From the NCBI GenBank assembly GCA_965202725.1, contig OZ241845.1:794640-858639 (forward strand): a DNA stretch of 64,000 bases. The letters are read 5' to 3'. Shown here in pieces: positions 4,104 through 57,969 of the stretch. Each line of letters opens with the position of its first letter. The first letter of the stretch is position 1. Under the pieces are notes generated by a model. It worked only from the letters and a program-made list of their open reading frames with translations, was not told where the DNA came from and did no database searches. Origin of the DNA: Candidatus Poribacteria bacterium (GTDB taxonomy: Bacteria; Poribacteria; WGA-4E; WGA-3G). The position numbers and the translations under genes were made by a program.

Positions 4104-4247
4104 GGGGTGTTCCCGTGCCAATTTGATTTATCCCCCTGCAAAGGTGCGAGGGTGGCAGATATGCCTTGTGGCAAGCTTAGCAGTGCCACCCACAACTGGT
4201 CAGAATAGTATAGTAGAAGGACAAGAATGATGCAAGTTGTTTTTCGA

Positions 4248-7706: not shown

Positions 7707-7876
7707 CTCTAATTACAATGCCAGCTTAAAAATAAATCTGTAGGGTGGGTAAAGCGATAAATACCCCCAAAACACCGGCAAACCTAAGGGACACATACCC
7801 GTTTTTCAAGGCATACCTTGTGTGAGTAGGTGTAGCGAAACCCAACACGTCACTTTAGGACTTACGCAGCATACTC

Positions 7877-7955
7877 TTTTGTAGCATCCCCCTTGCTTGC
7901 GGGGGCGGGGGGGTAATGTCAAACCTGCAGAGCCTAATAGGAAACCATGCTACAA
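7877..7955. repeat. composite repeat: A-fragment + B motif (CCCCCTTGCTTGCGGGGGCGGGGGGGTAATG) + A motif (reverse)
   Basis: B then A order, mirroring the A then B copy at 3631-3695 on the other side of the restriction-modification gene. Confidence 0.7.
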
Positions 7956-8022
7956 ATGCGGGGAGCAGAATGCATGTGTTTTTTCACATATCTCCGCCTC
8001 TTTTAGCACAGGGAGCAGATCA

Positions 8023-16236: not shown

Positions 16237-16964
16237 TTCGTTCTCCTAATGGTAATCGTCTGAACTGTGATTTTTGTGATTCTGTGATCTCTGTGATAAG
16301 AGGTACTTCTTGCGTGAAAATTCCACGTTATAAAATTACCGATTTGAATGATTTTTAAATCAATCCGTATGATCTTATTCTGTTGCCGATCGAGTACATC
16401 TTTTATACTCGCAGCTGTATTTATGCTACGAACCGTTGCAATGTCGTTTGTCCACATGGATTTGAAGAATGCCCGTTAGAGCCCGCAATCCCCGCGTCAT
16501 ACAACCGTGCTGCTTCGGGCTTGTAGAGAGGTGCGGCAATTGTGAGTAAGGTATGAAACAATATGAGGGACACAAGGATGGATTTGAAGGGCATCATGGG
16601 ATTAAGGAAACGGTTGGGCGGGACGGAGTTTTCACCCCGTCCACTGTTGTGATAAGTGGCGTAGTTACCGCGACTTAATATTTGCCCACGTTGTCGTTAG
16701 AGGGTACTGGGGAGTGACAGGTGTCAAACCGAGCACAGAGCCGGGGCAGTCGTTCATTATATTTTAGAGATCGGCTTGTTCGATCGACACATTGAAAATC
16801 CCAATTTCGTCCATTAGTCCTATTTACAATTCTCCTGTGGAGGATTTGAGTGGATTACCTGTACATGTCCCTTCCGTTAGTGCCTGCGCTGGACAGGCAA
16901 AGCTAATTTAGCATAAGGCGTATGCAACGTCAAGCAGAACTTCCAGCTTATTCATCGGAGTCGG

Positions 16965-17750
16965 CTAATAGGCTTTCATCGCGCCCCAAATCGTTGCGAG
17001 TTTCCCTGAAGGTTCAATGTCGGCGGCTACTTTTAGTCCTTTTGTCATGAGGGTGTCGATATCATCCTCGTCGAGTGCCACATTGAAGATGACAACATCG
17101 TCAACAACGCCACCGAAAAACTCACCCCACTGACCGTGTTGTCCAGTTGCTAAATAGATACCTATTAAAAAAGGTTTGTCGGTTAATGGATTCCTGCCTA
17201 AGTCGGGCGTAGTGATACCGGAAGCGATCGAAACAGCGTCCAGATATACGCCAAATTCATCACCATCCCAGGTAACCGCAACATGATGCCAATCGGTATC
17301 TGGGCTCCAAGGCGCGTCTATAAAGTGAAGCGTGCCCCCTGGATCATGCGTGTGGTGCCGGATTGTACCCCCATCCCACCAAAATCCAGGGGCCCAATCG
17401 TCTTTGGTCATAACCCCCATGCCGCTAGCGGGAGGCGCGTCTAATTTAAACCAAAGCGCGATCGTGTGTTCAGCACCAACCATTAAAGTATCATCGTGCG
17501 GAATTTCTACATAATCGTCTGAGCCGTCAAGGCTTAAAGCCTTGTTAAACTTGCCATCTACCCATTTTGCGTCGCCCTCAATCGTGGCATGATTGCCCTT
17601 CCCGGAAGAATCTTCGGCTTCACCACCACGCCCCTCATCAAAGAGCCACATCCCGACGCAAGCTTGAAAATCAATTTCAGCAGTGCTGCCCCCTACAAAC
17701 ATCAGGAGAGCAGCTATTAAACTGATACATAATAGTTTTAAGGTTGTCAT
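16965..17750 (-). CDS. secreted LamG-like (concanavalin A-like jelly-roll) domain protein with the conserved C-terminal GKLATIWG tail
   Basis: Signal peptide MTTLKLLCISLIAALLMFVGG. WHHVAVTWDGDEFGVYLDAV is a LamG signature. C-terminus is ...SGKLATIWGAMKAY. Confidence 0.6.
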   Translation of the reverse strand: MTTLKLLCISLIAALLMFVGGSTAEIDFQACVGMWLFDEGRGGEAEDSSGKGNHATIEGDAKWVDGKFNKALSLDGSDDYVEIPHDDTLMVGAEHTIALWFKLDAPPASGMGVMTKDDWAPGFWWDGGTIRHHTHDPGGTLHFIDAPWSPDTDWHHVAVTWDGDEFGVYLDAVSIASGITTPDLGRNPLTDKPFLIGIYLATGQHGQWGEFFGGVVDDVVIFNVALDEDDIDTLMTKGLKVAADIEPSGKLATIWGAMKAY

Positions 17751-37406: not shown

Positions 37407-38165
37407 ATGCGTAGAATGCTAACAGTCATCGCTTTCTTACTCTATCTGGGTGTAAGCTGTTTCGCTGCGTTCGAAGAGGAGACAGTATTATTATATCTCT
37501 TTGATGAAGAGACAGGCGATGAAGCGACAGACCTGTCCGAATTTGAGAATCATGGTGAAATCATTGATGCTGAATGGACAGAGGATGGGAAAAAAGGGGG
37601 CGCGCTCGTCTTTGATGGTACGAGCACTCTCATTGAAGTTCCACATCACGAGAGCCTCCTTCCCGGCGGCGATGAACTGACAATCGAAGCCTGGTTCAAG
37701 CCGAATTCGTTTCCGGCTGGCCATCCACCGATTGCAAGGAAAGGCTCTGTTGCTGAAAGTGGATGGGGTTTTGATACACCCGGGGGCCAAATTCGCGGAT
37801 TCGTCTACACCGCACCCGGGGCCGCCGCCGTTGCCCAAGGGACAACACAGCTGAAATTGGATACATGGCACCACGTCGCTATGGTGTACGACGGCACAGA
37901 GCTTCGCATCTATCTTGATGGTGAACAAGATGGACAAGCTGATCGAAAAGGAGACATCAACGAGAATCAAGCCTCGGTCTGGATTGGTAAGAAAGCAAAC
38001 GAAAGTGTCTGGCTTGATGGTACGCTTGATGAACTCCGTATTCTCAACATCGCACTTACCGAAGAACAGATTCAGGAAGATATGGAAGGCATCTCGTTTG
38101 CTGTCGAAGTTCCTGGAAAACTCACAACCACGTGGGGACGGATTAAAACGGAGGGCCTCCATTAG
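37407..38165 (+). CDS. secreted LamG-like jelly-roll domain protein with conserved C-terminal GKLTTTWG tail
   Basis: Signal peptide. WFKPN...WHHVAMVYDGTELRIYLDG is a LamG signature. C-terminus is PGKLTTTWGRIKTEGLH. Confidence 0.6.
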   Translation: MRRMLTVIAFLLYLGVSCFAAFEEETVLLYLFDEETGDEATDLSEFENHGEIIDAEWTEDGKKGGALVFDGTSTLIEVPHHESLLPGGDELTIEAWFKPNSFPAGHPPIARKGSVAESGWGFDTPGGQIRGFVYTAPGAAAVAQGTTQLKLDTWHHVAMVYDGTELRIYLDGEQDGQADRKGDINENQASVWIGKKANESVWLDGTLDELRILNIALTEEQIQEDMEGISFAVEVPGKLTTTWGRIKTEGLH

Positions 38166-38185
38166 CAAAATTGGAGAGGATAACA

Positions 38186-39037
38186 ATGGACACAAGTTGG
38201 CTTGAATACTGCGCGACTGACCGGCAACTCAAAGCGTTCAACGATACCGGTTACCTCGTCGTTGAGGACGCTATAAGTCATGACATGACAGATGCCTTGG
38301 AGGCAGTCGCAGATCGGCTTGATGCAGAAGAACGCGCGAAGACGGGACTGGCACCCCATGCCTTGATGTCAAAGTTCCGTACTGTCATCGAGGATGATAT
38401 CCTGCTGGATCTGCTCGATAATAAAAAGGTTTTCCCACTGCTTTGGGACATTCTCGGTTGGAACATCCAACTTTACATCTCACACCTTATCATGTATCCA
38501 CCCGAACCTCCCGATACTCCTCGCGTTGCGAAAGCCGCACATTGGCATCAGGACGGGGGAAGACCTGTGTCAGAGATGGAGCGACCCCATCCGCGCCTTT
38601 CATTGAAGGTGAGTTACTGGTTAAGTGATGTGACTGACCGAGATAACGGCGCAATGCGTCTGATTCCCGGGAGCCATAAACTCGACACCCGACCGCGCAA
38701 TACGGACGACAACCCGGATGGGGATCCAGAAGGTGCGATAGATCTGCTCGTCAAGCGGGGCACAGCTGTTCTTTTCGATAGACGGATGTGGCACTCACGC
38801 GGTTGGAATTTCTCCGATGTAACTCGGAAAGTCTTATTTATGGGGTATAGTTATCGTTGGCTACGGGGTTTAGATTATAATCTTATGCCACCGGAGCTTC
38901 TTGAGAAATGCGACCCGATTCGGCGGCAGCTCCTGGGGGATGGTGTAAACATTAAAGGCTGGTGGCAACCGACGGACGCTGATGTGCCTTTGAAAGCATG
39001 GATCGCAACACATCGCGGTGAGGCGTATTTACGGTAA
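38186..39037 (+). CDS. phytanoyl-CoA dioxygenase (PhyH)-family Fe(II)/2-oxoglutarate oxygenase
   Basis: HWHQDGG (H-x-D facial triad), WHSR, about 283 aa. GGAGAGG RBS. Confidence 0.65.
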   Translation: MDTSWLEYCATDRQLKAFNDTGYLVVEDAISHDMTDALEAVADRLDAEERAKTGLAPHALMSKFRTVIEDDILLDLLDNKKVFPLLWDILGWNIQLYISHLIMYPPEPPDTPRVAKAAHWHQDGGRPVSEMERPHPRLSLKVSYWLSDVTDRDNGAMRLIPGSHKLDTRPRNTDDNPDGDPEGAIDLLVKRGTAVLFDRRMWHSRGWNFSDVTRKVLFMGYSYRWLRGLDYNLMPPELLEKCDPIRRQLLGDGVNIKGWWQPTDADVPLKAWIATHRGEAYLR

Positions 39038-39116
39038 GGGCCGGTGGACTGCAAGCGGCAAAATGCCCTATTTCTTGGTAGGCGAGGTTAGGGAACCTCG
39101 CCTACCCAACAGAGCA

Positions 39117-40184
39117 TCACACCAGCGAGTCTTCCCCATCCGTCAACCACGCCAAATCAAACTTCGCAAATGACACCGTTTCATAAGCCTCGCTTTCACC
39201 GCATTCATAGAGGCAACATATCTCCATATCCGAAGCGATACAGAGGTCGGAATACGCCGCAGGCCCTGTATGTAAAACCTTACCACTGTTCCAACTTTGA
39301 CACTCATCATAACTAATGCGAATCGTCATCCGTTCACGATTCATGCTGGCAGGATTAGAGAACAAGACGCGGTTTTTGTCGTATCGGTTTTCATCCGTAT
39401 ACCGCACCGTGCTTGCCTGACAAATCGGCTCAACGAGGGCCTCGGCGTAACCGAATTCCGTGAATGTATCTCCGCCATCGCTACTTCGTGCATAAGCACG
39501 CCGTTTCGGTGCGACATAGTTCCGACAGTTAAAATAGAGGCCGCCATCCACCGTTTCAACGACCGCCGATTCATTCGTCCCGGGTTGCGCCTTACCCCCG
39601 ATCTTCCAAGTTTCGCCGCCGTCGTCGCTAACAATCAGGTGTGAGTAGCCGTATTGCGCGTAGTCTCGGTTGTTCCCAAGCACGTGATCACACGGAATCA
39701 CCAATCTGCCGTTTGCAAGTTGAATCCCGTGGCAGGGCCCCGTCGCGTACCACGTCCACGCTTCATCTTTCGTGGTCCCTGTGATTTCTCGCGGTTCCTC
39801 CCAAGTTTCGCCATCGTCATTGCTGGAGGTGACCCAGACGGTGCGCGGTGCTTCTCTCGCGACAATCTTTCCTTCCGCCCCGTTAGCGAGATTCTTACAA
39901 AAAAGGAGCCAGATTGTACCTGTGTCCCTCTCAACAACCGGTGCTGGGTTGCCGTCCGTATCGCTTCCAGTGGAGACAGCGATTTGCATCGGCTGCCAAC
40001 TCTCACCATTATCGAAACTCCGTTTCAAAACAATATCAATATCTCCTGAATCTCCGCCGCCTGTACGTCTGCCCTCGCAGAACGCCAACAGCGTTCCATC
40101 GTTAGATCGGACAAGCGCGGGAATCCGGAAGGTATGGTATCCTTCCGTTCCGGCTGTGAAAAGTGGACGTTCTGTTTTGTGCAT
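39117..40184 (-). CDS. exo-alpha-sialidase-like (GH33) BNR-repeat protein, no signal peptide
   Basis: N-terminal FRIP motif (YHTFRIPAL). Four Asp-boxes: SFDNGESW, SSNDDGETW, SDDGGETW, SSDGGDTF. Confidence 0.6.
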   Translation of the reverse strand: MHKTERPLFTAGTEGYHTFRIPALVRSNDGTLLAFCEGRRTGGGDSGDIDIVLKRSFDNGESWQPMQIAVSTGSDTDGNPAPVVERDTGTIWLLFCKNLANGAEGKIVAREAPRTVWVTSSNDDGETWEEPREITGTTKDEAWTWYATGPCHGIQLANGRLVIPCDHVLGNNRDYAQYGYSHLIVSDDGGETWKIGGKAQPGTNESAVVETVDGGLYFNCRNYVAPKRRAYARSSDGGDTFTEFGYAEALVEPICQASTVRYTDENRYDKNRVLFSNPASMNRERMTIRISYDECQSWNSGKVLHTGPAAYSDLCIASDMEICCLYECGESEAYETVSFAKFDLAWLTDGEDSLV

Positions 40185-40186
40185 GC

Positions 40187-40953
40187 TTACAAGCCCTCTC
40201 TAACCCGTGCCCACGTTGTTGCAAGTTTTCCGATGGGTTGGACATCTGCCGGATCGCCCATTACAAACGCATCAGGTTCTTTCTGATGATCGGAAAGTCG
40301 CAATCCATCAACGACACAATTCGTTGGAAATATTGGGTCAGGTGGGGAAGCGTTGTTAATCTCAAAGGTTTCCGCGAACACGGTGGGGCCTTTTTTGAAA
40401 TCGGCTTCCCCCGCAAGTTTGCCATCTAAATAGAGTTTTAATCCGTCGGGGCCCCACGTCCCCGCCATGTGGTGGTGTTCTCCGATTTTCCAGTCGAGGG
40501 GGGCACTGTTGGCATTATGCCACGACCCGCGCTTTTAATGCGCATCTGTGCGATTCCACCTGTATTAAACTGGAGAAATACGGCATCAGTTCCGCGTTTA
40601 TAGGTCATGAACATAAAGAGTTCACCCGCAACATCACTGGTATCTAATCCCATCGTTACCCACAACTCGACTGTCCCTTCGTCAAGGTTGATGAAGCGAT
40701 CCTCCACGGGGAAGTGAATAACATCCCCAACTGCTTTGCTGACAAAACCGTTGCCGTATTTACCGGGTTCAAAACTTCCGCCATCCACAGTGGCTCCCTC
40801 TTTTTCGACTTCCGCTTGGCTCTCCAACGCAGAAAAGAAGGTCTCCTCTGCTGTAGCAATAGAGACACATAACAGCGCGATTGTCAAAAGACACAACGTT
40901 TTCATGAAATATCCTCCGGTTTCGGTTAACTTACCTTGAATATAAAGATGCAT
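40187..40953 (-). pseudogene. LamG-like secreted protein with conserved C-terminal GKLATTW tail, split by a 1-nt frameshift near a C6/G6 homopolymer (40498-40503)
   Basis: Two ORFs (40438-40953 and 40187-40468) in frames differing by 1 nt. Together they give signal peptide + LamG body (..EHHHMAGTWGPDGLKLYLDG..) + tail IGKLATTWARVREGL. Confidence 0.5.
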
Positions 40954-44940: not shown

Positions 44941-45016
44941 TTGGTAAGTTAATTCAAATAGGGTGTATCCCTGAATGAACCTGTTCATGTAGCGACACTT
45001 GCGTGCCGCTACACCC

Positions 45017-48000
45017 TTAGTCTTGCGTTTTCAGATCGCCCCAGGTCGTCGTGAGCTTGCCCGCAGCGTTGACGTTGCCCCGAAGATGCGTGGTGCGCAA
45101 AGTGGTGCGCGTGCCATCCAAGGAGACGTCTTCTATCTGGTAATAGTAGACGAGGTTGGGTTTCGCAGAGGCATCCGTCCAGCTATAGACGTGCTTTTCA
45201 GCCGTTGTGCCGTGTCCGGGGATAATGCCTTTGCTGTTGACGACTGTGAACGTTCCGGTCTTTGTTTCACTGCGCAGTATATTGAAACCTGCGTTGTTGA
45301 GTTCGGACTCGGTGCTCCAGCGGATGACGACTTCGCCAGTGGCGGTGTCTCGTGCGGGTCGGAAGCTTGCCAGGGAGACGGGCAGGGGTCCCCCGCCGTG
45401 ATGCCCTGGTGTGCCGACATCGTTTCTATCGCCGTAATAGGTTGTTTCGCTATAGCCTTCTGCGGAGCGCCCCGTATTCTGTGCGGAGATCCACCCGCTC
45501 TGCATCATGCCATCAGCAGCCATGTCATCCTCGTATCTACGTATGATAGACGCGCGATGCCCATCGCTGTTGATACCCATCGGCAGGGCCCACTCGGGTG
45601 CATCGTTTGTGCGGCGATTCCCGTCGGTGTTGCCGACTTCGTCAACCACCTTTTTGTCCTTATCTGTGAGTTTCAGATAGAAACCCGTAGCACTCAGGAC
45701 TGTATCGGTGCGCGCTTCCATGTCCAGCTCGCTGCGATGTGATGTCCAGAGGTCTATCGTGCGAGTATCCGGGAAATGGTCTCTGCCTGAGTTAGAACCA
45801 CTGGTGGAAACAATCAATATCGTCTGATTCGGTGCGATGGTGACGGCACCGAGCGTGATCGTGGCGTTCTGACGGGCATCTAAGTTCTCATCCCGTGCGT
45901 TCTGAATTTCAAGTTGCCAGCCGTTCAGGTTCACACCCTGCGTCAGTGAAGAATTGTAAAGTTCTATCCACTGTGGGAGCGAACGTCTACCGGAGCCCGC
46001 ACTAAACATGATCTCAGAGATAGCGACCTCTGCATCAGAGAGATCCGCAACTTTCTCTTTGAGGGCATCGTTAGCATAGCCGGGGGTGCCTCCGTTTTCA
46101 TCGGTGTTGGCAGCCGTGCGGTCATAGCCGATCCCCGTGAAACCCACTTTCGCCCAGTGCTTCTCACCTATACCCGTGTTCTTACCATTCCGTTTATAGA
46201 CGAGACCCGCACGGAAGTCCTCATCGGCACCATCAATCACGTTGCCGTGCCCCGCAGCCCATAACCGAAGGGGCCACACCTCTGTGTCAAAACTACCATC
46301 CTTTTTCTCAGCGAAATAGGTGCCACCATGATCAACAATGTGCGTTGACTTGCCCTCTTTGTCATTCGCACTGCGAAGGATCAGGTTATATTTGCCACTA
46401 TTGGGTAAAACCAGGTTGCTATCTATGTAATACATGGATTGCACACCGCGTTTGACCCGGTCCGCCGCTGCCTTGTTAATCGCAACGCCCGCAGCCAGAT
46501 CATTCCCCGAAGCCGTCGGATCCGAGTTGGAAATCAACAAGATACCCCCCGCAGCGAGTTTCACGTTATCGTTATCCGGGAACGAGACCAACTGCGTCTC
46601 TTTCGCAGCACCATCCACCGACATCACGATATTCAGCTCCCACTTCCTGAGGTTCATCTCACCCGTCGTGGTGTTCCTGAGTTCAACCCAATCGTTAGCA
46701 TCGCTGCTGCTATTGCCTATCTCATTGATCAGCACCTCTTGCGATAGCACCGGCGGGTCTGGTCGAGCTGCCACAGGATACGTACCAGGTGTCCCAAGAC
46801 GATTCCCCGACAGATTCCGGCTCGGTCTCCCAGAAGCAACCCAAGTACCCGAACGCTCCGGATCCCCATCATCTTTCGCATGATCCGCATGCCCGGTATT
46901 ATCTTCATCGAACTGCTTCAGCTTCCGATACATAGACACAAGATCCACCGCATTAGCAGCAGTCGTCGCTTCAGAGCGACCCCCCTTGCTCGGGATAGCC
47001 CAGAAACCCGGATTACCCATATTACTCACAAGATCCACACGACCCGCTACTGACGAAGAAACCCCAGCTGGCTCCGGAACACCCCCTTGCGTAAAGTCAA
47101 GCATCCAACGCGACCCGTCAAAGATAATGGCCGAACCCGTCTTGTTGTAGACTTCAATCCACTGGCTATACTTAGAACGACCCCCTAAAGTAGCATCCTT
47201 GGCAGCCATGATCTCCGTGATCTTCAAATCACCCACCGCCGCACCCGCAGGCCCTTTAACGATAATCGTGCCACCATTCAGGAAGAAATCCTGGAGATCC
47301 ACCATATTCGAAACGGAGATGGTCTTTACGCCACTGGCAATACCCGTGTCGCTTGCCATCGCACCCGGATGCACAAGAACCCCAAAACCTTTGCTTGGAA
47401 TCACATTATCTATATCGGTTACAGTGAGAGTGAACATCAGCTGGGCATTACCCCCGCTGTTGGTCGCAGTGTAGGTATACGTAGTTGCTGCCATTGCAGA
47501 TCCTGTGGGAGTGCCACTCAGCAGCCGAGTCCCTGCAGTAAATGCGAGACCCGCAGGTAAGGCAGGGGTTAGGCTGTACGTGATACCCGTGCCAGTTGCC
47601 ATCGGAAGTTCTATAGCCCGCATTGCCACACCTACAGTCAATATCTGATTGGCAATCACCGTACCAGCAGCAAACGTAGGTGCCACAGGGGCGACAGGGG
47701 CTACAGTGATAGTGAACGTCTTGGTGTCACTCCCAGCACTGTTGGTCGCAGTGTAGGTAAAAGTAGTCGCCGACATCGCAGCAGCGGGAGTCCCACTCAG
47801 CAGCCGAGTCGTCGCATTAAACGCAAGACCATTCCAAGCGGCCGGTGCCAGCGAGTAAGTCACGCCAGTCCCCGTTGCCATCGGCAATGTTTCACTCACT
47901 GCCATACCCACAGTGTAGGTCTTAGCTGGAACAACTGCTAACACAGGAACACTTGTTACGGGATTGACAGTGAGAGTGAACGTCAGCTGGGCATTACCCC

Positions 48001-49870
48001 CGCTGTTTGTGGCAGTGTAGGTATACGTAGTTGCTGCCATTGCAGTTGTGGGGGTGCCACTCAGCATCCGGGTCGCTGTAGTAAACATGAGACCCGCAGG
48101 TAAGGCAGGGGTTAGACCGTAGGTGATACCCGTGCCAGTTGCCATCGGAAGTGTCAGAGCCGGCATTGCTACACCTACAGTCAACATCTGATTGGCAATG
48201 CTCGCATCAGTAGCAAACGTAGGTGCCACAGGGGCGACAGCGGCTACAGTGAGAGTGAAAGTCAGCTGGGCATTACCCCCGCTGTTTGTGGCAGTGTAGG
48301 TATACGTAGTTGCTGTCATTGCTGTTGTAGGGGTGCCACTCAGCAGCCGGGTCGCTGGCGTAAACGTCAGTCCCGCAGGTAAGGCAGGGGTTAGGCTGTA
48401 CGTGATACCCGTGCCAGTTGCCATCGGAAGTTCTATAGCCGGCATTGCTACACCTACAGTCAACATCTGATTGGCAATCACCGTACCAGCAGAAAACGTA
48501 GGTGCCACAGGGACAGGGGCTACAGTGATAGTGAACGTCAGCTGGGCACTGCCTCCGCTGTTGGTCGCAGTGTAGGTATAAGTAGTTGCTGTCGTCATTG
48601 CAGTTGTGGGGGTGCCACTCAGCACCCGGGTCGCTGGCGTAAACGCAAGACCCGCAGGTAAGGCAGGGGTTAGGCTGTAGGTGATACCCGCACCGCTCGC
48701 CACCGGAAGTGTCAGAGCCGGCATTGCCCTCCCTACAGTCAACATCTGATTGGCAATACTCGCATCACCAAACGTAGGCTGCGTCCGCCCCGGCATCGGC
48801 GTCCCAGACACAGCCGCAGAGGGCGTGCCTGCAGGCGTAGTGCCTGCGGCTGCTACACGGATACGCACGGTGATCGGAGTGCCAGCAGCGCCACGGATGA
48901 CCAACGGATAGACCGATACAGCCACCCAATTCACGCCGCCATCGGTGCTATACTCATACCCAGTCGCCGAACCGCCCGTCCAAGACACCGTTATCTTCCC
49001 TGGCCCAGGTTCCACAACAACGCCCGTCGGCATATCGCCGCTAGTGTCGCCACCAGTGTCGCCATTGCCATCGCCGTCATCGCCGCCGTTGCCATCGCCG
49101 TTAGTGTCGCCGTCCATGTCATCGTCAACAGTTGGAATTGGTGTAGGTGTCTGTGTGGGTGTCTGTAACGGCGGGCTCGAACCGTCCGCGTTGTTTATCC
49201 TTAGATAAAAAAAACGCATTACATCACCCTCGTACTCATAACTGCCGCCATCAACCGCGGTATAAGTAAAGTAAAAGTGGCCTGCTTCAGTAGGGGTGCC
49301 AGCAAGGGTCCGAGTCGATGCTGTGAATGTTAAGCCGGCGGGAAGGGCCCGAGTAGGGCTGCCGATGGCATTGTAAAGACTTACCGTCAGTGTATACGTC
49401 GTCGTATCGCCGTCCTCTTGCGTTGCCTCTGGCAAAACAAGACTGTACGCCTGCCCTACCCTCGCTGGACTGGGTGCCGGGATTCTACTCTCACTAAACA
49501 TAGGATCGGAATGTACAGTGAGATTAAACGTCAACGTAATATCGGTCTCACCCGGTGCTGAGGCAGTTACCGTATATGCTGTGGTTGGATAGCCTGCCCG
49601 GAAATGCCCCTGGATTCTAGGGTAATTCTGAACATTTGCAAGCCTCAAAGGAGCAGGTAAGGCGGGCGCTATCGAGAAAGTTATCCCGGCGGCACCCTCA
49701 GCGCGTGACAACGGATGGTCCGTGTTATCACCTTTAGCGAAGTCTAAATCAGGTTGTGTAGTAGGATTCCATGTAAGTGCAGCCTCCACGGCAGTTGGCA
49801 CCAGGAGCAAGGCAAATACTAACAGGACTACTAAACTTGCGAAAGAAAATGTTATTTTATTTGATAACAT
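45017..49870 (-). CDS. giant (1617 aa) secreted adhesin-like protein
   Basis: Signal peptide MLSNKITFSFASLVVLLVFALLLVPTAVEA. Acidic DG-rich tract. Five or more ~95-aa Ig-like 'putative Ig / dystroglycan-type' repeats (YSLTPALPAGLTFTPATRLLSGTPT). Three lamin-tail (LTD) domains (ITEIM..WIEVYN, INEIG..WVELRN, ISEIM..WIELYN). C-terminal beta-domain ends in AGKLTTTWGDLKTQD. The Ig repeats are also near-identical DNA repeats (~47.4-48.8 kb). Confidence 0.7.
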   Translation of the reverse strand: MLSNKITFSFASLVVLLVFALLLVPTAVEAALTWNPTTQPDLDFAKGDNTDHPLSRAEGAAGITFSIAPALPAPLRLANVQNYPRIQGHFRAGYPTTAYTVTASAPGETDITLTFNLTVHSDPMFSESRIPAPSPARVGQAYSLVLPEATQEDGDTTTYTLTVSLYNAIGSPTRALPAGLTFTASTRTLAGTPTEAGHFYFTYTAVDGGSYEYEGDVMRFFYLRINNADGSSPPLQTPTQTPTPIPTVDDDMDGDTNGDGNGGDDGDGNGDTGGDTSGDMPTGVVVEPGPGKITVSWTGGSATGYEYSTDGGVNWVAVSVYPLVIRGAAGTPITVRIRVAAAGTTPAGTPSAAVSGTPMPGRTQPTFGDASIANQMLTVGRAMPALTLPVASGAGITYSLTPALPAGLAFTPATRVLSGTPTTAMTTATTYTYTATNSGGSAQLTFTITVAPVPVAPTFSAGTVIANQMLTVGVAMPAIELPMATGTGITYSLTPALPAGLTFTPATRLLSGTPTTAMTATTYTYTATNSGGNAQLTFTLTVAAVAPVAPTFATDASIANQMLTVGVAMPALTLPMATGTGITYGLTPALPAGLMFTTATRMLSGTPTTAMAATTYTYTATNSGGNAQLTFTLTVNPVTSVPVLAVVPAKTYTVGMAVSETLPMATGTGVTYSLAPAAWNGLAFNATTRLLSGTPAAAMSATTFTYTATNSAGSDTKTFTITVAPVAPVAPTFAAGTVIANQILTVGVAMRAIELPMATGTGITYSLTPALPAGLAFTAGTRLLSGTPTGSAMAATTYTYTATNSGGNAQLMFTLTVTDIDNVIPSKGFGVLVHPGAMASDTGIASGVKTISVSNMVDLQDFFLNGGTIIVKGPAGAAVGDLKITEIMAAKDATLGGRSKYSQWIEVYNKTGSAIIFDGSRWMLDFTQGGVPEPAGVSSSVAGRVDLVSNMGNPGFWAIPSKGGRSEATTAANAVDLVSMYRKLKQFDEDNTGHADHAKDDGDPERSGTWVASGRPSRNLSGNRLGTPGTYPVAARPDPPVLSQEVLINEIGNSSSDANDWVELRNTTTGEMNLRKWELNIVMSVDGAAKETQLVSFPDNDNVKLAAGGILLISNSDPTASGNDLAAGVAINKAAADRVKRGVQSMYYIDSNLVLPNSGKYNLILRSANDKEGKSTHIVDHGGTYFAEKKDGSFDTEVWPLRLWAAGHGNVIDGADEDFRAGLVYKRNGKNTGIGEKHWAKVGFTGIGYDRTAANTDENGGTPGYANDALKEKVADLSDAEVAISEIMFSAGSGRRSLPQWIELYNSSLTQGVNLNGWQLEIQNARDENLDARQNATITLGAVTIAPNQTILIVSTSGSNSGRDHFPDTRTIDLWTSHRSELDMEARTDTVLSATGFYLKLTDKDKKVVDEVGNTDGNRRTNDAPEWALPMGINSDGHRASIIRRYEDDMAADGMMQSGWISAQNTGRSAEGYSETTYYGDRNDVGTPGHHGGGPLPVSLASFRPARDTATGEVVIRWSTESELNNAGFNILRSETKTGTFTVVNSKGIIPGHGTTAEKHVYSWTDASAKPNLVYYYQIEDVSLDGTRTTLRTTHLRGNVNAAGKLTTTWGDLKTQD

Positions 49871-50834: not shown

Positions 50835-52511
50835 TCACTCTGTAACAACCGTCTCCTCACCGAGCATATCAATAATCTTCACAGCAACCCGAGCATCAGG
50901 ACGCGGCAGCGATACCGTGTATTCTCCCTCAACAAAGTCAGCCTTTTTCTGTGGAACATCGCTTTCAACGATGTCGAAACGCTCGCCCGTATAATCGGTA
51001 TCGATTAGCACACAATCAACTTGTGCACGGAAGTCCTCAATGTGTTCGCCGAAGAGGGTGCGGTCTATGTCCAAACGCCCCAAGATAGTTGGACTCATAT
51101 AATCTTCAATAGTGATCGTAACGCTCTCTCCGTTTCTTTCAAAGCTAACATCTGCTTCGGCAGCCGCATAAGTAGTCACACCATCACGTTGAATATCGCG
51201 CACGATGAATTTGTTTATCCCGCGTCGCTGGTTTTCTTTAACAAGTTCTTCCTGAATTCCGATCTCGCTCCCATTGCATAGCAGCGTGATGTTGCGTGCC
51301 TCATCTGGGCGATTTTGGAGTTCGTCTTTAATAAGTTGAACATCCAATCGATTGAACGGTCTTGTAAGGTCAATAATTTTGACGAGTGTCCCGTCCAGTG
51401 TGCCGTCAAAAAACGCTTCTCGCCTGTCCGTTTGCACGCCATATTTTTTGATAACAATATTCCTTCGTTCTAAATGTGTGCTGGCATCGTAGTTATTGAC
51501 ACGATAGTGGGCAATGCCGCGCCGCATCTCTGGTAACTTCTGTAGTCTTTTGAGTGTCGTCTGGATGGCCCCTTTGTTGATATCCGCAGCAATCCAGCGC
51601 CTACCGAGTTCCTCCGCTATGACTGCAGTGGTTCCGCTACCAATAAAACAATCAAGAACGATAGAATCCTTGTTGCTCGAGGCTTTAAGAATAGGTTCTA
51701 TTAAATTTTTAGGTTTTTGAGTAGGAAAGTCGGAACGTTCCCGATCCATAGTGTTAAGCGAAGGTTGAATAATCACATCATCAGGAGTTTTACCTGTTGG
51801 CATATCCTTTCCTGCTTGTCCTCCCCTGTTGTATCGCCACTCGGTCATTCCGCTTTCAAAAGGCACTAGAATTTCATCTCGATTGAAAATGTATTTGTCC
51901 GGCGATTTGGTATACCAAAAAATAGTCTCATGTGCATGGGCTAATCTCTTTTTTCCACGAGAGGCATTTTTGTAGTACCAAATAATTTCATTCTGGAAGA
52001 GGTCTTTGTCAAATATTTCGTCCATGAGTACTTTCAGATAGTGACTTTTTTCATGGTTGCAATGCAGGTAAATTGAACCTTTATCTGATAACAATTCATA
52101 CATCAAAATGAGTCGTTCATACATAAACTGCAAATAGTTGTCATTTGCCCAAATATCAGTGTATTGTGTTTGCTCGACAAAAGAGGGACCTTCGCCTGCT
52201 AATTCTTTCTCTTCACCGCGCAGTTTTACCTTTCGCACATAGTCTGCTCCACTGTCAAACGGTGGATCGATATAAATGAGGTCTATTTTACCACGAAACC
52301 CTTGCACAAGCAATGTGGAGAGAATCTCTTTGTTGTCTCCGTGAAAAAGGAGATTGGGCCCCTCCTTGAATCTGTCGTAAGTCGGTTCCTTTTCTGGGTT
52401 TTCTATGTTGTAGGTTTCGACTAATTGTGCAGGATAGTTGCTGATTGTGTCAATCGGGCGTTTGCCGACCCAATGCAACATCGGTCTGCCTTTAACGGGT
52501 TTGATTTTCAT
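50835..52511 (-). CDS. Type III restriction-modification methyltransferase Mod, paralogue 1 (beta-class N6A/N4C MTase) with ~230-aa conserved C-terminal extension
   Basis: Motif IV IDLIYIDPPF near the N-terminus, a variable middle target-recognition region, motif X PTQKP, motif I VLDCFIGSGTTAV, then a long C-terminal domain shared by all copies. Start placed at MKIKPVKG (ATG 52511). The listed ORF starts 15 nt upstream. Confidence 0.6.
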   Translation of the reverse strand: MKIKPVKGRPMLHWVGKRPIDTISNYPAQLVETYNIENPEKEPTYDRFKEGPNLLFHGDNKEILSTLLVQGFRGKIDLIYIDPPFDSGADYVRKVKLRGEEKELAGEGPSFVEQTQYTDIWANDNYLQFMYERLILMYELLSDKGSIYLHCNHEKSHYLKVLMDEIFDKDLFQNEIIWYYKNASRGKKRLAHAHETIFWYTKSPDKYIFNRDEILVPFESGMTEWRYNRGGQAGKDMPTGKTPDDVIIQPSLNTMDRERSDFPTQKPKNLIEPILKASSNKDSIVLDCFIGSGTTAVIAEELGRRWIAADINKGAIQTTLKRLQKLPEMRRGIAHYRVNNYDASTHLERRNIVIKKYGVQTDRREAFFDGTLDGTLVKIIDLTRPFNRLDVQLIKDELQNRPDEARNITLLCNGSEIGIQEELVKENQRRGINKFIVRDIQRDGVTTYAAAEADVSFERNGESVTITIEDYMSPTILGRLDIDRTLFGEHIEDFRAQVDCVLIDTDYTGERFDIVESDVPQKKADFVEGEYTVSLPRPDARVAVKIIDMLGEETVVTE

Positions 52512-52956
52512 TGTGTTCCGTCCCATGCCTCAAAATGTGTATAAATTTTTCTGGGGGCACGATCTGTATTTGCTCATAACTACCTAAATCCAATAGGTCC
52601 CGGTCTCGACTTACGATATAATCGGCTGATACTGCCACAGCGCAGGAGATAATCATGTCGTCTTTAGGGTCGCGTTCTATGACACGAATTTCTGGCAATT
52701 GTGCAACTATAATGCTAATATCTTTCAGGTAATCGATAAAAATTTCTGCTTTTTCTGAGGGATATGTATAACGATTCCGTATGTGTGGTTTCTCTAAAAG
52801 TACATGGCGAATTTCCTGTAAAATTTCTGCCGACGTGTAAAGATTGACATTTTCCTGACACTGAGACACCAAGGCTGCTGTCAATCCCTGGGTAAGAAAA
52901 GCACTTACGGCGACAACGCTATCAAGGACAACGCGTAGTTTTCTTCTGTTTGTCAT
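52492..52956 (-). CDS. PIN-domain toxin (VapC-like)
   Basis: RVVLDSVVAVSA (N-terminal Asp) ... CAVAVSADYIVSRDRD acidic residues typical of PIN. Start placed at MTNRRK (ATG 52956). Its 3' end overlaps the mod1 start by ~20 nt. Confidence 0.5.
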   Translation of the reverse strand: MTNRRKLRVVLDSVVAVSAFLTQGLTAALVSQCQENVNLYTSAEILQEIRHVLLEKPHIRNRYTYPSEKAEIFIDYLKDISIIVAQLPEIRVIERDPKDDMIISCAVAVSADYIVSRDRDLLDLGSYEQIQIVPPEKFIHILRHGTEHNENQTR

Positions 52957-53526: not shown

Positions 53527-55266
53527 TCACTCGGTAACAACCGTCTCCTCACCAAGCATATCAATAATCTTCACAGCAACGCCAGCATCAGAACGCGGCA
53601 GTGATACCGTGTATTTTCCCTCAACAAAGTCAGTCTTTTTCTGTGGAACATCGCTTTCAACGATATTGAAATGCTCACCCGTATAATCGGTATCGATTAG
53701 CACACAATCAACCTGGGCTCGGAAGTCCTCAATGTGTTCGCCGAAGAGGGTGCGGTCAATATCCATGCGTGCCAAGATAGTTGGACTCATATAATCTGCT
53801 ATAGTGATCGTAACGCTCTCTCCGTTTCTTTCAAAGCTAACATCTGCTTCGGCAGCCGCATAAGTAGTCACACCATCACGTTGAATATCGCGCACGATGA
53901 ATTTGTTTATCCCGCGTCGCTGGTTTTCTTTAATAAGTTCTTCCTGAATTTCGCCCTCACTTCCATTGCATAACACCGTGATGTTGCGTGCCTCATCTGG
54001 GCGATTTTGGAGTTCGTCCTTAATGACTTGAATATCCAGTCGGGTGAACGGTCTCGTCAAGTCAGCGATTTTGACGAGGGTTCCGTCTAAGTGTCCATCA
54101 AAGAAAGCAGCTTTCCGGTCAGTTTCCACACCGTATTTAGAAACGATAATCTCTTTAAGTTTGTGCTCAGTTTGGAAGTCGTAGTTATTGACGCGGTAGT
54201 GGGCAATCCCACGTGGTTCGTCAATACTGGACTGTATCCTTTTCATTGTAGTCTGTATCGCGCCTCTGTTGAGGTCTGCAGCGATCCAACGTCTACCAAG
54301 TTTTTCCGCTACAGCAGCAGTGGTGCCACTCCCCACAAAGCAATCTAAAACGATATCTCCCTCATTAGAAGATGCTGTGATAATACGTTCTAATAGAGCT
54401 TCAGGTTTTTGGGTTGGATATCCTATACGTTCATCATCGTCACCTTGTATAGTAAGCTCCTTTTCTATCCATAGATTTCCAATAGCGACTCCAGGATTAG
54501 TATCAAGGTAGACTCTCTTAACAGTGCCTTGCAGATATTTGCGACCCCGTGGTATTGCATAACGTCGACCATTTTCGTCAGTGTGTCTATATTCAGATTT
54601 GATAGTTTGTTCTGATAATGGACGGAATATAGCATTGAAAGTATATTTATCGGTGAGCGAATAAAACAGTAAAGTGTCGTTCTCAGTTGTAAATTTTAGT
54701 TTCGCTGTATTTTTATGTCCCCCATATTTTCTCCACACGATCTCATTTCTAAAGTTAATTTCTCCAAAAATTTCGTCCAATACTAACCTCAAATAACTGT
54801 TCATCCGCCAGTCACAATGCACAAAGATAGCCCCATTATCTGATAACAATTCCCGCATCAGAGTCAACCGTTCGTACATAAACTGAAGATAAGTATCATT
54901 TGCCCAAATATCACTGTATTGTATCTGTTCAGCAATAGTGTGTCCTTCTGCCTCCAGTTTCTCCCTTCTACCGCGCAATGCCACTTCCCGTACATAATCC
55001 GCACCGCTTGCAAAGGGTGGATCGATGTAGATAAGGTCTATCTTCCCGCGGAATCCCTGCACGAGAAGTGTAGAGAGGATTTCCTTGTTATCGCCGTGAA
55101 AAAGGAGGTTAGGACCGTCCTTAAATCTGTCGTAAGTTGGTTCTTTTTCTGGGTTTTCGGTGTTGTAGGTTTCGACTAGTTGTGCAGGATAGTTGCTGAT
55201 TGTGTCAATCGGGCGTTTGCCGACCCAGTGGAGCATGGGTCTGCCTTTAACGGGGGTGATTTTCAT
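53527..55266 (-). CDS. Type III restriction-modification methyltransferase Mod, paralogue 2 (different target-recognition region)
   Basis: About 200 N-terminal and ~230 C-terminal residues are near-identical to mod1. The central ~150 aa are unrelated. DPPF and FVGSGTTA motifs are intact. Confidence 0.6.
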   Translation of the reverse strand: MKITPVKGRPMLHWVGKRPIDTISNYPAQLVETYNTENPEKEPTYDRFKDGPNLLFHGDNKEILSTLLVQGFRGKIDLIYIDPPFASGADYVREVALRGRREKLEAEGHTIAEQIQYSDIWANDTYLQFMYERLTLMRELLSDNGAIFVHCDWRMNSYLRLVLDEIFGEINFRNEIVWRKYGGHKNTAKLKFTTENDTLLFYSLTDKYTFNAIFRPLSEQTIKSEYRHTDENGRRYAIPRGRKYLQGTVKRVYLDTNPGVAIGNLWIEKELTIQGDDDERIGYPTQKPEALLERIITASSNEGDIVLDCFVGSGTTAAVAEKLGRRWIAADLNRGAIQTTMKRIQSSIDEPRGIAHYRVNNYDFQTEHKLKEIIVSKYGVETDRKAAFFDGHLDGTLVKIADLTRPFTRLDIQVIKDELQNRPDEARNITVLCNGSEGEIQEELIKENQRRGINKFIVRDIQRDGVTTYAAAEADVSFERNGESVTITIADYMSPTILARMDIDRTLFGEHIEDFRAQVDCVLIDTDYTGEHFNIVESDVPQKKTDFVEGKYTVSLPRSDAGVAVKIIDMLGEETVVTE

Positions 55267-56088: not shown

Positions 56089-57790
56089 TCACTCGGTAAC
56101 AACCGTCTCCTCACCAAGCATATCAATAATCTTCACAGCAACGCCAGCATCAGAACGCGGCAGTGATACCGTGTATTTTCCCTCAACAAAGTCAGTCTTT
56201 TTCTGTGGAACATCGCTTTCAACGATATTGAAATGCTCACCCGTATAATCGGTATCGATTAGCACACAATCAACCTGGGCTCGGAAGTCCTCAATGTGTT
56301 CGCCGAAGAGGGTGCGGTCTATGTCCAAACGCCCTAAGATAGTGGGACTCATATAATCTGCTATAGTGATCGTAACGCTCTCTCCGTTTCTTTCAAAGCT
56401 AACATCTGCTTCAGCAGCCGCATAAGTGGTCACACCATCACGTTGAATATCGCGCACGATGAATTTGTTTATCCCGCGTCGCTAGTTTTCTTTAACAAGT
56501 TCTTCCTGAATTCCGATCTCGCTCCCATTGCATAACACCGTGATGTTGCGTGCCTCATCTGGGCGATTTTGGAGTTCGTCTTTAATAAGTTGAACATCCA
56601 ATCGGGTGAACGGTCTTGTAAGGTCAATGATTTTGACGAGTGTCCCGTCCAGTGTGCCGTCAAAAAACGCCTCGCGCCTATTCGTTTGCACGCCATATTT
56701 TTTGATAACAATATCCCTTCGTTCTAAGTGCGTACTGGCATCGTAGTTATTGACACGATAGTGGGCAATGCCGCGCCGCATCTCTGGTAACTTCTGTAGT
56801 CTTTTGAGTGTCGTCTGGATGGCCCCTTTGTTGATATCCGCAGCAATCCAGCGCCTACCGAGTTCCTCCGCTATGACTGCAGTGGTTCCGCTACCAATAA
56901 AACAATCAAGGACAATAGAATTTTTATCGCTTGATGCTTTGATGATACGTTCTACAAGCTTTTCAGGTTTCTGGGTAGGAAATTGTTGCCGCTCTTTCGC
57001 ACTTCTACTGATAATGCCGATTTCAAATAGGTCTGATGGCAATTGCCCCTTTGGGTGTGCGTACCACTTTTTACCTGAAGAATCTAATGTGTAATAACCC
57101 TCTCCGTCCTGTTTGTAACCTTTTAGTTGTTCTGCTTTATAAGGTTCCCGCATTTCATCTAAGTGAAAAATCCAATCTTCGGCACTTTTAGCGTACCAAA
57201 AGATCGTATCATGTTTCTGAGAGAACTTCTTTCTTACTGTACTTGCCCAATTATACTTCCAGACGATTTCGTTGACGAAATTACCCTCTCCGAATACTTC
57301 GTCTAATAGTAAACGTAGATGATGATTTTTGTGTGAATCGCAATGAAGATAGAGACTTCCCCTATCACTTGAGTTCGCGCATCAAAATGAGCCGTTCAAA
57401 CATGAATTGAAGGTAGTTATCATTTGCCCAGATGTCGGTATATTGCGTCTGCTCAATAAGGGAATGGCCTTCCGCCTCTAAGTTTTTCTGTCCTCCACGT
57501 AATGCTACCTTTCGCACATAGTCTGCTCCACTGTCAAACGGTGGATCGATATAAATGAGGTCTATTTTACCACGAAACCCTTGCACAAGCAATGTGGAGA
57601 GAATCTCTTTGTTGTCTCCGTGAAAAAGGAGATTGGGCCCCTCCTTGAATCTGTCGTAAGTCGGTTCCTTTTCTGGGTTTTCTATGTTGTAGGTTTCGAC
57701 TAATTGTGCAGGATAGTTGCTGATTGTGTCAATCGGGCGTTTGCCGACCCAATGCAACATCGGTCTGCCTTTAACTGGCTTGATTTTCAT
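56089..57790 (-). pseudogene. Type III Mod paralogue 3, decayed
   Basis: N-terminal fragment 57365-57790, target-recognition region + motif I fragment 56482-57153, C-terminal fragment 56089-57457. Broken by a frameshift near 57360 and a CAG to TAG nonsense at 56483-56485 (gtcgcTAGtttt versus gtcgcTGGtttt in the intact copies). Carries a third distinct target-recognition region. Confidence 0.55.
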
Positions 57791-57942: not shown

Positions 57943-57969
57943 GCACAGGCTAACGGTTTCCTATGCTAC
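57943..57969. repeat. A-motif copy (reverse: CACAGGCTAACGGTTTCCTATGCTACA) plus partial copy, between res and the mod array
   Basis: Overlaps the res stop codon region. Confidence 0.6.

Follow-up and report, generated by a model that had tools for sequence, protein, structure and literature searches.

Do secreted proteins of Poribacteria carry a C-terminal sorting or anchoring signal of their own? The question was raised by a stretch of 64,000 nucleotides (hereafter the window) from Candidatus Poribacteria bacterium (GCA_965202725.1, contig OZ241845.1, positions 794,640 to 858,639), a member of an uncultivated phylum of sponge symbionts. From the sequence alone, it was noticed that four different secreted proteins, three LamG proteins and one giant Ig/LTD adhesin, share a short tail, GKL[AT]T[TI]W[GA]x[IVL][KR], lying 5-9 residues from the C-terminus. 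This tail was proposed to be a recognition tag for a dedicated processing or attachment enzyme, such as a sortase or exosortase analogue, or for a secretion system.

The tail in the window

A six-frame scan finds GKL[AT]T[TI]W exactly four times in the window, at 16986-17006 (-), 38115-38135 (+), 40211-40231 (-) and 45041-45061 (-), and each copy lies 6-9 residues before a stop codon. The degenerate DNA pattern gives 4 matches, against a mean of 0.00 in 100 dinucleotide-preserving shuffles. The observation made in the sequence-only reading is therefore confirmed, and it extends much further than could be seen from the window. The relevant features are as follows.

45017..49870 (-): gene of a 1617-aa secreted adhesin with a signal peptide, six He_PIG domains, two LTD domains, an FN3-like C-terminal domain and the tag
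45020..45079 (-): C-terminal tag of this adhesin, GNVNAAGKLTTTWGDLKTQD (Trp codon 45041-45043; stop 45017-45019)
16965..17750 (-): gene of LamG protein A, a 261-aa Laminin_G_3 protein with a signal peptide; the Laminin_G_3 match covers residues 75-231, so the tag lies outside the domain
16968..17024 (-): C-terminal tag of LamG protein A, AADIEPSGKLATIWGAMKAY
37407..38165 (+): gene of LamG protein B, a 252-aa Laminin_G_3 protein with a signal peptide
38097..38162 (+): C-terminal tag of LamG protein B, FAVEVPGKLTTTWGRIKTEGLH
40187..40905 (-): gene of LamG protein C, interrupted by one frameshift near 40526
40190..40249 (-): C-terminal tag of LamG protein C, PADVQPIGKLATTWARVREGL
16665..16757 (-): a 30-aa ORF carrying a degraded fifth tag, LTPVTPQYPLTTTWANIKSR

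The host annotations hold. There are three Laminin_G_3 proteins and one protein with He_PIG and LTD domains, all four have hydrophobic, signal-peptide-like N-termini, and no hydrophobic segment follows the motif. However, three points have to be corrected or added. The third gene had been given as 40187-40953, but this is not one ORF. The gene is 40187-40905, with a single frameshift relative to orthologues in loci L079, L102 and L108, which are intact at 239 aa. It is either a pseudogene or a sequencing error. The fifth, decayed copy is the 3' remnant of a deleted LamG gene that is intact in locus L117 (5425-6231), where it ends in ...GSVLGLTPVTPQGRLTTTWADIKSQ. In addition, the conserved unit is longer than first described, since it also includes [LF]-[AP]-V-[EDQS]-[PA] upstream. 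Val at -10 from the Trp is present in 115 of 121 tails, although it was not part of any search pattern. The full tag is [LF]-[AP]-V-[EDQS]-[PA]-x-G-K-L-[AT]-T-T-W-[GA]-x-[LIV]-K, about 17 residues, followed by 1-5 (at most 12) mostly basic residues. Other secreted proteins in the window, such as the pectate lyase at 18154-19212, lack the tail, so that it marks only a subset of exported proteins.

Spread, hosts and structural context

Two conditions had been named under which the idea of a tag would fail, namely that the motif is confined to these four proteins, or that it forms an integral strand of a shared terminal domain in all of them. Both were examined and neither applies. A scan of 185,579 species genomes returned at least 118 loci, and 106 of the 118 listed are labelled Poribacteria. 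An exhaustive profile search found 347 clusters at 50% identity, and every cluster member that carries an organism name is Candidatus Poribacteria. A word-indexed protein search with a 42-aa profile returned only 18 proteins of similarly short length and was uninformative about the hosts. In 119 poribacterial DNA sources, 143 of 144 relaxed matches lie 1-12 residues before a stop codon, and the remaining match runs off the end of its locus. Similarly, 145 of 147 listed hits from the exhaustive profile search are at the extreme C-terminus. A repeat or regulatory element at the DNA level was rejected, because the four copies in the window differ at synonymous sites and every synonymous codon is used at the conserved positions across 144 tails. 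Conservation is thus at the protein level.

The hosts form at least 17 clusters with no BLAST similarity to each other, including LamG proteins, LTD adhesins, CBMs, DUF1080, FGE-sulfatase and ankyrin. A Pfam scan of 54 diverse hosts finds Laminin_G_3, LTD, 3keto-disac_hyd, CBM_4_9, CBM9, pentaxin, FGE-sulfatase, ankyrin, F5/8 type C, SnoaL and DUF3108-like domains. Most hosts are beta-sandwich or jelly-roll proteins. However, an ankyrin protein with a metalloprotease-like region, FGE-sulfatase, SnoaL and PD40 propellers are also among them. Co-occurrence with signal peptides is strong. By a hydrophobicity heuristic, not a trained predictor, 107 of 119 tail-bearing ORFs have signal-peptide-like N-termini, against 121 of 557 other ORFs in the same loci (Fisher p about 1e-45). 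Five loose lipobox-pattern matches among 144 tail-bearing ORFs lie inside the hydrophobic core of the signal peptide, so none looks like a genuine lipobox. The mature hosts are acidic, with a median net charge of -17, while the tail is basic.

AlphaFold2 leaves the tail undocked in two contexts. In LamG protein B, residues 232-252 have pLDDT about 34 and no secondary structure, while the LamG core is above 90. In the adhesin, the tail has pLDDT about 55 and lies outside the preceding sandwich, which has pLDDT about 90, is complete without the tail and finds FN3 hits with Foldseek. DSSP assigns only isolated bridges and a short low-confidence helix to the tail in the adhesin model. It should be noted that this low confidence shows that the tail does not dock on its own domain, but does not show that it binds something else. 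The Pfam LamG matches end 15-25 residues before the motif. The hydrophobic moment of the tail exceeds shuffled controls at 170 degrees but not at 100 degrees, which points to beta-type rather than helical amphipathicity, and an amphipathic-helix membrane anchor was rejected on this basis.

No Pfam or NCBIfam model covers the tail, and a search of solved structures gave only chance partial matches with E >= 0.04. Literature searches found nothing for the peptide strings, for Poribacteria combined with sorting-signal terms, or for Poribacteria combined with LamG.

Candidate partners and comparable signals

In about 965 kb of gene neighbourhoods, nothing resembles a sortase, exosortase, rhombosortase or T9SS component, and no receptor, protease or transporter that could serve the tail was identified. 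The recurrent neighbours are Gfo/Idh/MocA oxidoreductase, ASPIC/UnbV, sulfatase, PhyH, FGE, TPR, an ECF sigma factor, BNR sialidase, PBP1C with alpha-2-macroglobulin, and ABC transporters. They were identified by eye from representative sequences, apart from PhyH and BNR sialidase, which were scanned with Pfam. All are ordinary, abundant poribacterial families, and none is plausible sorting machinery. The only recurrent membrane-protein neighbour is the polytopic DUF6785/DUF6784 protein (14326-16236 in the window), which sits next to tail-bearing genes in 6 of 119 sources. However, a reciprocal test rejected it. Of 43 metagenome loci encoding DUF6785 relatives, only 3 contain a tail-bearing gene, and the closest relative (L119, 91% identity) has no tail gene next to it. 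Pfam, NCBIfam and the literature give no function for this family.

The tail can be compared with several known C-terminal signals. The type IX secretion system C-terminal domain (type A, TIGR04183 / PF18962; type B) is likewise a C-terminal module without a transmembrane helix, found on Sec-exported proteins of many unrelated families (LamG, CBMs, adhesins), occurring in many copies per genome and restricted to one lineage. Indeed, a distant LamG homologue, P0118, carries PF18962 in the position where the tail would be. However, the T9SS C-terminal domain is a folded Ig-like sandwich of 70-100 residues, while the tag has about 17 conserved residues, is predicted to be unstructured and is not modelled as a strand of the preceding fold. 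Scans of the five window proteins and fragments gave no hit to the T9SS models at E <= 0.01 (Pfam) or E <= 0.1 (NCBIfam), and none appeared among the 54 diverse hosts. T9SS structural genes were reported absent from poribacterial single-cell genomes (Kamke et al. 2014, PMC3909097).

The tripartite signals cleaved by sortase, exosortase, archaeosortase, rhombosortase or myxosortase (LPXTG, PEP-CTERM, PGF-CTERM, GlyGly-CTERM, MYXO-CTERM; bioRxiv 10.1101/2023.06.07.544157; PMC11980579) also place a short signature motif close to the C-terminus of many paralogous secreted proteins and are lineage-restricted. These signals end in a cluster of basic residues. In the poribacterial tail, the extension is enriched in Arg and Lys and the last residue is Arg or Lys in 54 of 121 tails, although the extension is short and variable. 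The defining transmembrane helix between the motif and the basic cluster is missing, since only 1-12 residues follow the invariant Lys, mostly Arg, Ser, Gln and Lys. The motif itself is longer and unrelated, and no cognate enzyme was seen among the clustered neighbours. A heuristic search also found no transmembrane-plus-basic C-terminal signal among signal-peptide-like ORFs in the sampled poribacterial DNA.

Cargo-loading peptides of encapsulins and encapsulation peptides of bacterial microcompartments are also short terminal tags on flexible linkers that send diverse proteins to one destination, and Poribacteria do encode microcompartment shell proteins (PMC3909097). Those cargos are cytosolic, whereas about 90% of the tagged proteins have signal-peptide-like N-termini, and the tag shows no helical amphipathicity above shuffled controls. 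The beta-signal of outer-membrane proteins read by BamA is also a C-terminal beta-strand-like motif, recognised in the periplasm by strand pairing. It ends in an aromatic residue at the very C-terminus of a beta-barrel protein. Here the last residue is Arg in 37 tails, Lys in 17, Gln in 12 and Asn in 10, Phe, Tyr and Trp together account for 18 of 121, and the hosts are soluble LamG, CBM and FN3 domains.

What the tail may do

The interpretation offered in the sequence-only reading is partly supported. The analysis shows that the tail is phylum-wide in Poribacteria, is conserved as a peptide, follows unrelated host families, co-occurs with signal-peptide-like N-termini and differs from LPXTG, PEP-CTERM and T9SS signals. 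That it is a sorting or anchoring signal is inferred from its architecture. The best reading, to which a probability of about 0.55 may be given, is a lineage-specific, modular tag marking a large subset of Sec-exported, non-lipoprotein, acidic and mostly lectin-like proteins, and recognised by another component. In this view, the N-terminal signal peptide would take the protein across the inner membrane, as inferred from the sequence. The tail would stay flexible and exposed, tethered to the last folded domain by a short linker, which is supported by the two AlphaFold2 models. A single conserved envelope factor would then bind the tail as an extended peptide or beta-hairpin, and either pass the protein across the outer membrane or fasten it to the cell surface, and the variable extension after the invariant Lys may be trimmed. 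The binding, the transfer or attachment and the trimming are inferred. Functionally, the tail would play the role that the T9SS C-terminal domain or the sortase and exosortase signals play in other phyla, with a different, much shorter architecture and no transmembrane segment. However, every known cleaved sorting signal of comparable length includes a transmembrane helix, which this tail lacks, and this speaks against the reading.

Other explanations are less likely. The tail may be a direct, non-enzymatic anchor, in which the basic and aromatic peptide (Lys, Trp, Lys and an Arg-rich end) sticks to an anionic envelope polymer such as LPS, peptidoglycan or exopolysaccharide, or to the membrane interface, and retains the acidic lectin-like proteins at the cell surface without a dedicated protein receptor. 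The charge contrast between tail and hosts, the invariant Trp and Lys, the enrichment of Arg and Lys in the extension and the lack of a partner gene in the sampled neighbourhoods fit this possibility, which is nonetheless unlikely. Near-invariance of small and polar positions (Gly -6, Thr -2, Thr -1, Gly or Ala +1) and of Val -10 points to stereospecific recognition by a protein rather than generic electrostatic or interfacial binding, there is no helical amphipathicity above shuffled controls, and ten to seventeen residues with only two or three charges would make a weak anchor. Somewhat less likely still is an assembly tag, a beta-strand or hairpin docking onto a common scaffold or onto other tagged proteins to build a multi-protein surface layer or complex, like a dockerin on a cohesin or donor-strand complementation in pili. 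The beta-type amphipathicity, the predicted flexibility and exposure, the many paralogues carrying one identical tag, often in tandem gene arrays, and its presence on giant Ig/FN3-rich adhesins are in its favour. However, no scaffold with repeated acceptor modules was seen in the sampled DNA, and the tag has no similarity to dockerins or pilin donor strands. This idea overlaps with the main one, since it also needs a receptor and differs only in what the receptor is.

A C-terminal degron or quality-control tag, read by a periplasmic protease to control the turnover of exported proteins, is improbable. The tail is indeed a short, exposed peptide on many unrelated proteins, and frameshifted and remnant copies are common. 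However, a genome-encoded degron fixed on what appear to be on the order of a hundred constitutively encoded secreted proteins (a figure extrapolated from local densities of one tail per 16-40 kb) and conserved across a phylum has no precedent, and known tail-specific proteases read the last few residues, which here vary in length and sequence. The least likely explanation is a structural element of the host, such as the last strand of a jelly-roll or of a shared terminal domain, or a DNA or RNA element. The prevalence of beta-sandwich hosts would suit a structural strand, but the undocked models, the LamG domain boundaries, the non-jelly-roll hosts and the codon usage largely refute this reading.

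A bolder possibility, only tentative, is that the tag is the address label of a protein-sorting or surface-display system that has not been described before. A dedicated poribacterial envelope machine, unrelated to sortases, exosortases, rhombosortases and the T9SS, would read this transmembrane-less peptide in the periplasm. It would export or attach what appear to be on the order of a hundred lectin-like proteins and giant adhesins per cell, and so define the symbiont's surface towards the sponge host.

Poribacteria are dominant sponge symbionts whose cell-surface biology is essentially unknown, and an earlier genome paper noted surface-type proteins with no identifiable secretion route (PMC3909097). 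Current annotation pipelines call the tagged proteins only 'hypothetical' or 'LamG domain-containing'. A single short, easily searched tag would give a sequence-only way to list the likely surface or secreted proteins of the phylum, which are mostly glycan-binding proteins. It would also provide the 'many substrates' side of a many-to-one pairing, which is the input that phylogenetic profiling needs to find the unknown machinery. If the tag is confirmed as a sorting signal, it would widen the known range of bacterial C-terminal sorting signals to a type that is neither a folded domain nor a motif followed by a transmembrane helix.

Position, sequence and distribution of the C-terminal tail

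The sequence-only reading had described a short conserved C-terminal tail shared by four secreted proteins of the window, and this observation is confirmed and can be greatly extended. In a six-frame scan, GKL[AT]T[TI]W was found exactly four times in the window, each time 6-9 residues before a stop codon:

16986-17006 (-), copy in a Laminin_G_3 protein
38115-38135 (+), copy in a Laminin_G_3 protein (LamG protein B)
40211-40231 (-), copy in a Laminin_G_3 gene with a frameshift
45041-45061 (-), copy in a 1617-aa adhesin with six He_PIG domains and two lamin-tail domains

The corresponding degenerate DNA pattern gives 4 matches, against a mean of 0.00 in 100 dinucleotide-preserving shuffles. The four copies differ at synonymous positions (GGG AAA CTC GCA ACG ATT TGG, GGA AAA CTC ACA ACC ACG TGG, and so on). 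Thus, what is conserved is a peptide and not a nucleotide element. The domain content of the hosts was confirmed by Pfam, and all four begin with hydrophobic, signal-peptide-like segments. Long ORFs on the strand opposite the adhesin and LamG B genes, at 44999-45742 (+) and 37491-38195 (-), are probably spurious antisense ORFs.

Two corrections to the sequence-only reading are needed, and they concern the following features:

40187-40905 (-), third tail-bearing LamG gene, with a single frameshift near 40526
16665-16757 (-), 30-aa ORF with a fifth, degraded copy of the tail, MNDCPGSVLGLTPVTPQYPLTTTWANIKSR
16421-16597, N-terminal stub of a TPR gene
16236-16965 (-), deletion scar containing the two preceding fragments

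The third protein, which had been taken as one ORF, is not one ORF. Compared with intact 239-aa orthologues in three other genomes (loci L079, L102 and L108 of the genome scan described below), the gene is split at ...IKSAG|SWHNAN..., and it is either a pseudogene or an assembly error. The block LamG-tail / PhyH / BNR sialidase / LamG-tail at 37407-40953, to which this gene belongs, is syntenic with other poribacterial chromosomes, as seen in L108 (OY764016.1) and L102, which places the window in Poribacteria. The fifth copy is the 3′ remnant of a LamG gene. Its intact form, a LamG protein ending ...NLMNDGLGSVLGLTPVTPQGRLTTTWADIKSQ, was found in another locus, L117. In the window, the remnant lies next to the stub of the TPR gene, which is full-length in L117 and in a further locus, L119. 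In these two loci, the TPR, FGE-sulfatase and ASPIC/UnbV genes lie between this point and a DUF6785 gene, and L117 also keeps the intact LamG gene upstream of the TPR gene. The intervening genes are missing from the window, and the stretch is therefore a deletion scar.

To see how widespread the tail is, one genome for each of 185,579 bacterial and archaeal species was scanned with a degenerate pattern for GKL[AT]T[TI]W[GA]xx[K/R], and at least 118 loci were found. Of these 118 loci, 106 are labelled Poribacteria, 9 are unlabelled "uncultured bacterium" MAGs, and 3 carry other phylum labels, on contigs of 3.7-21.5 kb from binned MAGs. The source genomes include MAGs from sponges, whereas others, inferred only from isolate and sample names, appear to come from sediments or hydrothermal settings. 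In these loci plus the window, a relaxed form of the motif occurs 144 times in six-frame translation. Of these, 143 lie 1-12 residues before a stop, and the last one runs off the end of its locus. A still looser C-terminal pattern finds 29 further divergent tails, such as GKFTTTW, GKVTTTW and KLPTIW. These include tails on PD40/TolB-like beta-propeller proteins, namely those in L022 at 521-1567 (+), L075 at 4046-5017 (+) and L059 at 7260-8000 (-), which end in ...AVSPAGKGTTLWGRLKQLIH, ...AVSPIAQTQTTLWSRLKKSGSD and ...PVSPQPQLLTTTWGDVKSEDRK, respectively. With such divergent forms considered, only Val(-10), Trp, [GAS](+1), [LIV](+3) and Lys(+4), numbered from the Trp, appear to be truly fixed.

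An exhaustive HMMER search with a tail profile against 1.84 billion cluster representatives (50% identity) gave 347 hits at E <= 0.001. Of the 147 hits inspected, 145 carry the tail at the extreme C-terminus, and the other two are false positives. Every cluster member that carries an organism name is Candidatus Poribacteria, and these proteins are annotated only as "hypothetical protein" or as LamG-fold proteins. Local densities range from one tail per about 16 kb in the window to one additional tail per about 40 kb in the loci. By extrapolation, this suggests on the order of a hundred tagged genes per 5-6 Mb genome, although this figure is not a count and is inflated by tandem paralogue arrays. 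Indeed, tail-bearing genes often occur as arrays of two or three paralogues (L032, L066, L105, L110, L112, L015, L021 and L030), and some arrays use divergent tail variants, such as GKFTTTW in L021, L110 and L112 and GKLPTIW in L066. In addition, many very short ORFs (20-75 aa) carry the tail (L029, L037, L060, L084, L090 and many of the proteins P0119-P0283). They look like gene fragments produced by frameshifts or truncated contigs rather than free-standing peptides, although only the copy in the window was examined in detail.

Conserved residues, hosts and predicted structural context

From an alignment of 121 distinct tails on the invariant Trp, the consensus is [LF](-12) [AP](-11) V(-10) [EDQS](-9) [PA](-8) x G(-6) K(-5) L(-4) [AT](-3) T(-2) T(-1) W(0) [GA](+1) x [LIV](+3) K(+4). 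It is followed by 1-5 (at most 12) variable residues rich in Arg, Ser, Gln and Lys. Val(-10) is present in 115 of 121 tails although no search pattern included it, and this is independent evidence of homology. All synonymous codons are used at every conserved position. There is no hydrophobic stretch after the motif. The hydrophobic moment exceeds that of shuffled controls at a beta-strand periodicity, for both the ϕAVE(-12 to -7) segment and the KLATTWGxLK segment, but does not exceed it at a helical periodicity. This fits a strand or hairpin better than an amphipathic helix.

With the tail removed, 113 complete hosts fall into 17 clusters with no BLAST similarity to each other. Pfam on 54 diverse hosts finds Laminin_G_3 (21), LTD (5), 3-keto-disaccharide hydrolase/DUF1080 (3), CBM_4_9 (2), CBM9 (2) and pentaxin (2), while single hosts carry FGE-sulfatase, ankyrin, F5/8 type C, SnoaL/DUF4440 or DUF3108-like domains. 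Many hosts have no Pfam match. With gene starts as called, 107 of 119 tail-bearing ORFs are signal-peptide-like, against 121 of 557 other ORFs in the same loci (Fisher p about 1e-45), and most of the exceptions look like mis-called starts. None of the tail-bearing ORFs has a convincing lipobox. The mature hosts are acidic (median net charge -17), while the tail is basic. However, only some exported proteins carry the tail. In the window, the pectate lyase at 18154-19212 and several other signal-peptide proteins lack it.

Whether the tail is part of a fold was tested in two contexts. AlphaFold2 on LamG protein B with a 47-sequence alignment gives a confident jelly-roll (pLDDT above 90, residues about 25-228), whereas the tail, residues 232-252, has pLDDT about 34 and no secondary structure. 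AlphaFold2 on the last 150 residues of the adhesin gives a confident beta-sandwich (pLDDT about 90, residues about 30-130), and the best PDB matches of this sandwich are FN3 domains. Again, the tail lies outside the sandwich, with pLDDT about 55. The Pfam LamG matches end 15-25 residues before the motif. Together with the diversity of the preceding domains, this excludes, as far as prediction can, the reading that the tail is the last strand of a jelly-roll or of a shared terminal domain.

Gene neighbourhoods and candidate partners

In search of the machinery, all ORFs in about 965 kb of poribacterial neighbourhoods were clustered. The recurrent neighbours are Gfo/Idh/MocA oxidoreductases, ASPIC/UnbV proteins, sulfatases, PhyH, FGE, TPR proteins, an ECF sigma factor, a BNR sialidase, PBP1C with alpha-2-macroglobulin, and ABC transporters. 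Most of these were identified by eye from representative sequences, and only PhyH and the BNR sialidase were scanned with Pfam. All are ordinary, abundant families. One lead appeared in this analysis, a polytopic membrane protein of unknown function that sits next to tail genes in six sources. This protein and other genes seen in the window are as follows:

14326-16236 (-), 636-aa polytopic membrane protein with DUF6785 and DUF6784 domains
50835-52526, 53527-55266, 57365-57790 (-), two full-length N6_N4 DNA methylase genes and a 141-aa fragment, sharing almost the same N-terminus (MKIKPVKGRPMLHWVGKRPIDTISNYPAQLVETY...)
57966-60620 (-), 884-aa ResIII-type helicase/restriction gene
23118-24071 and 24501-25313 (+), two tandem ORFs ending in nearly identical sequence (HRVA[AT]QASSIDAFTHALLNLEN)

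A reciprocal test did not support the DUF6785/DUF6784 protein as a partner. Of 43 metagenome loci encoding DUF6785 relatives, most are from lower-GC organisms without the tag, and only three contain a tail gene. Relatives at 60-65% identity are common in lower-GC metagenome contigs that lack the tag, and the 91%-identical relative in L119 has no tail gene next to it. This lead was therefore rejected. A heuristic search for a transmembrane-plus-basic C-terminal signal among the other signal-peptide-like ORFs also found none. As for the remaining genes, the methylase genes and the fragment lie upstream of the helicase/restriction gene, and this looks like a duplicated type III-like restriction-modification locus. 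The two tandem ORFs appear to be paralogues from their shared ends.

Possible role of the tail and comparison with known signals

The proposal of the sequence-only reading that the tail is a sorting or anchoring signal is partly supported, in that the tag has the hallmarks of such a signal. The analyses establish that the tag is a modular peptide conserved at the protein level with a fixed position at the C-terminus, that it marks a lineage-restricted subset of proteins with export signals, and that it is not predicted to pack against its host domain. It is only inferred, on the other hand, that an exposed peptide of this kind is read by another component, and neither a function nor a machinery has been demonstrated. 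Near-invariance of small and polar residues (Gly, Thr-Thr, Gly/Ala) as well as Val, Leu, Trp and Lys points to stereospecific recognition by one conserved protein, and the recognized form is probably an extended strand or hairpin. The architectural slot matches that of the T9SS C-terminal domain in other phyla. For example, P0118, a distant LamG homologue of 339 aa from another organism, carries a T9SS C-terminal domain (PF18962) exactly where the tail would be. A sorting or anchoring tag that acts after Sec export is therefore favoured, with a confidence of about 0.55. The variable, basic extension after an invariant Lys would fit trimming or cleavage at that point, although this is speculation. 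Among the alternatives, a receptor-free anchor to a polymer or membrane is unlikely but ranks next, and an assembly or docking strand is somewhat less likely still. A degron seems improbable, and a cis-structural or nucleotide-level element is the least probable of all.

The tag was also compared with known C-terminal signals. It does not have the fold of the T9SS C-terminal domain and gives no HMM hit to it. It lacks the transmembrane helix of tripartite sortase- or exosortase-type signals. It has no terminal aromatic residue as in the OMP beta-signal, and its hosts are not barrels. Encapsulation peptides do not fit either, because the cargos here have signal peptides. No model in NCBIfam release 20.0 or Pfam hits the tag, no solved structure contains it, and literature searches found no description of it. 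[quoted passage not shown] Poribacterial surface-type proteins with T9SS-like C-terminal domains have been noted, but no T9SS genes were found, and the secretion route was left open (Kamke et al., 2014; PMC3909097). The tag found here is a separate, unreported feature of the same unresolved problem in Poribacteria.
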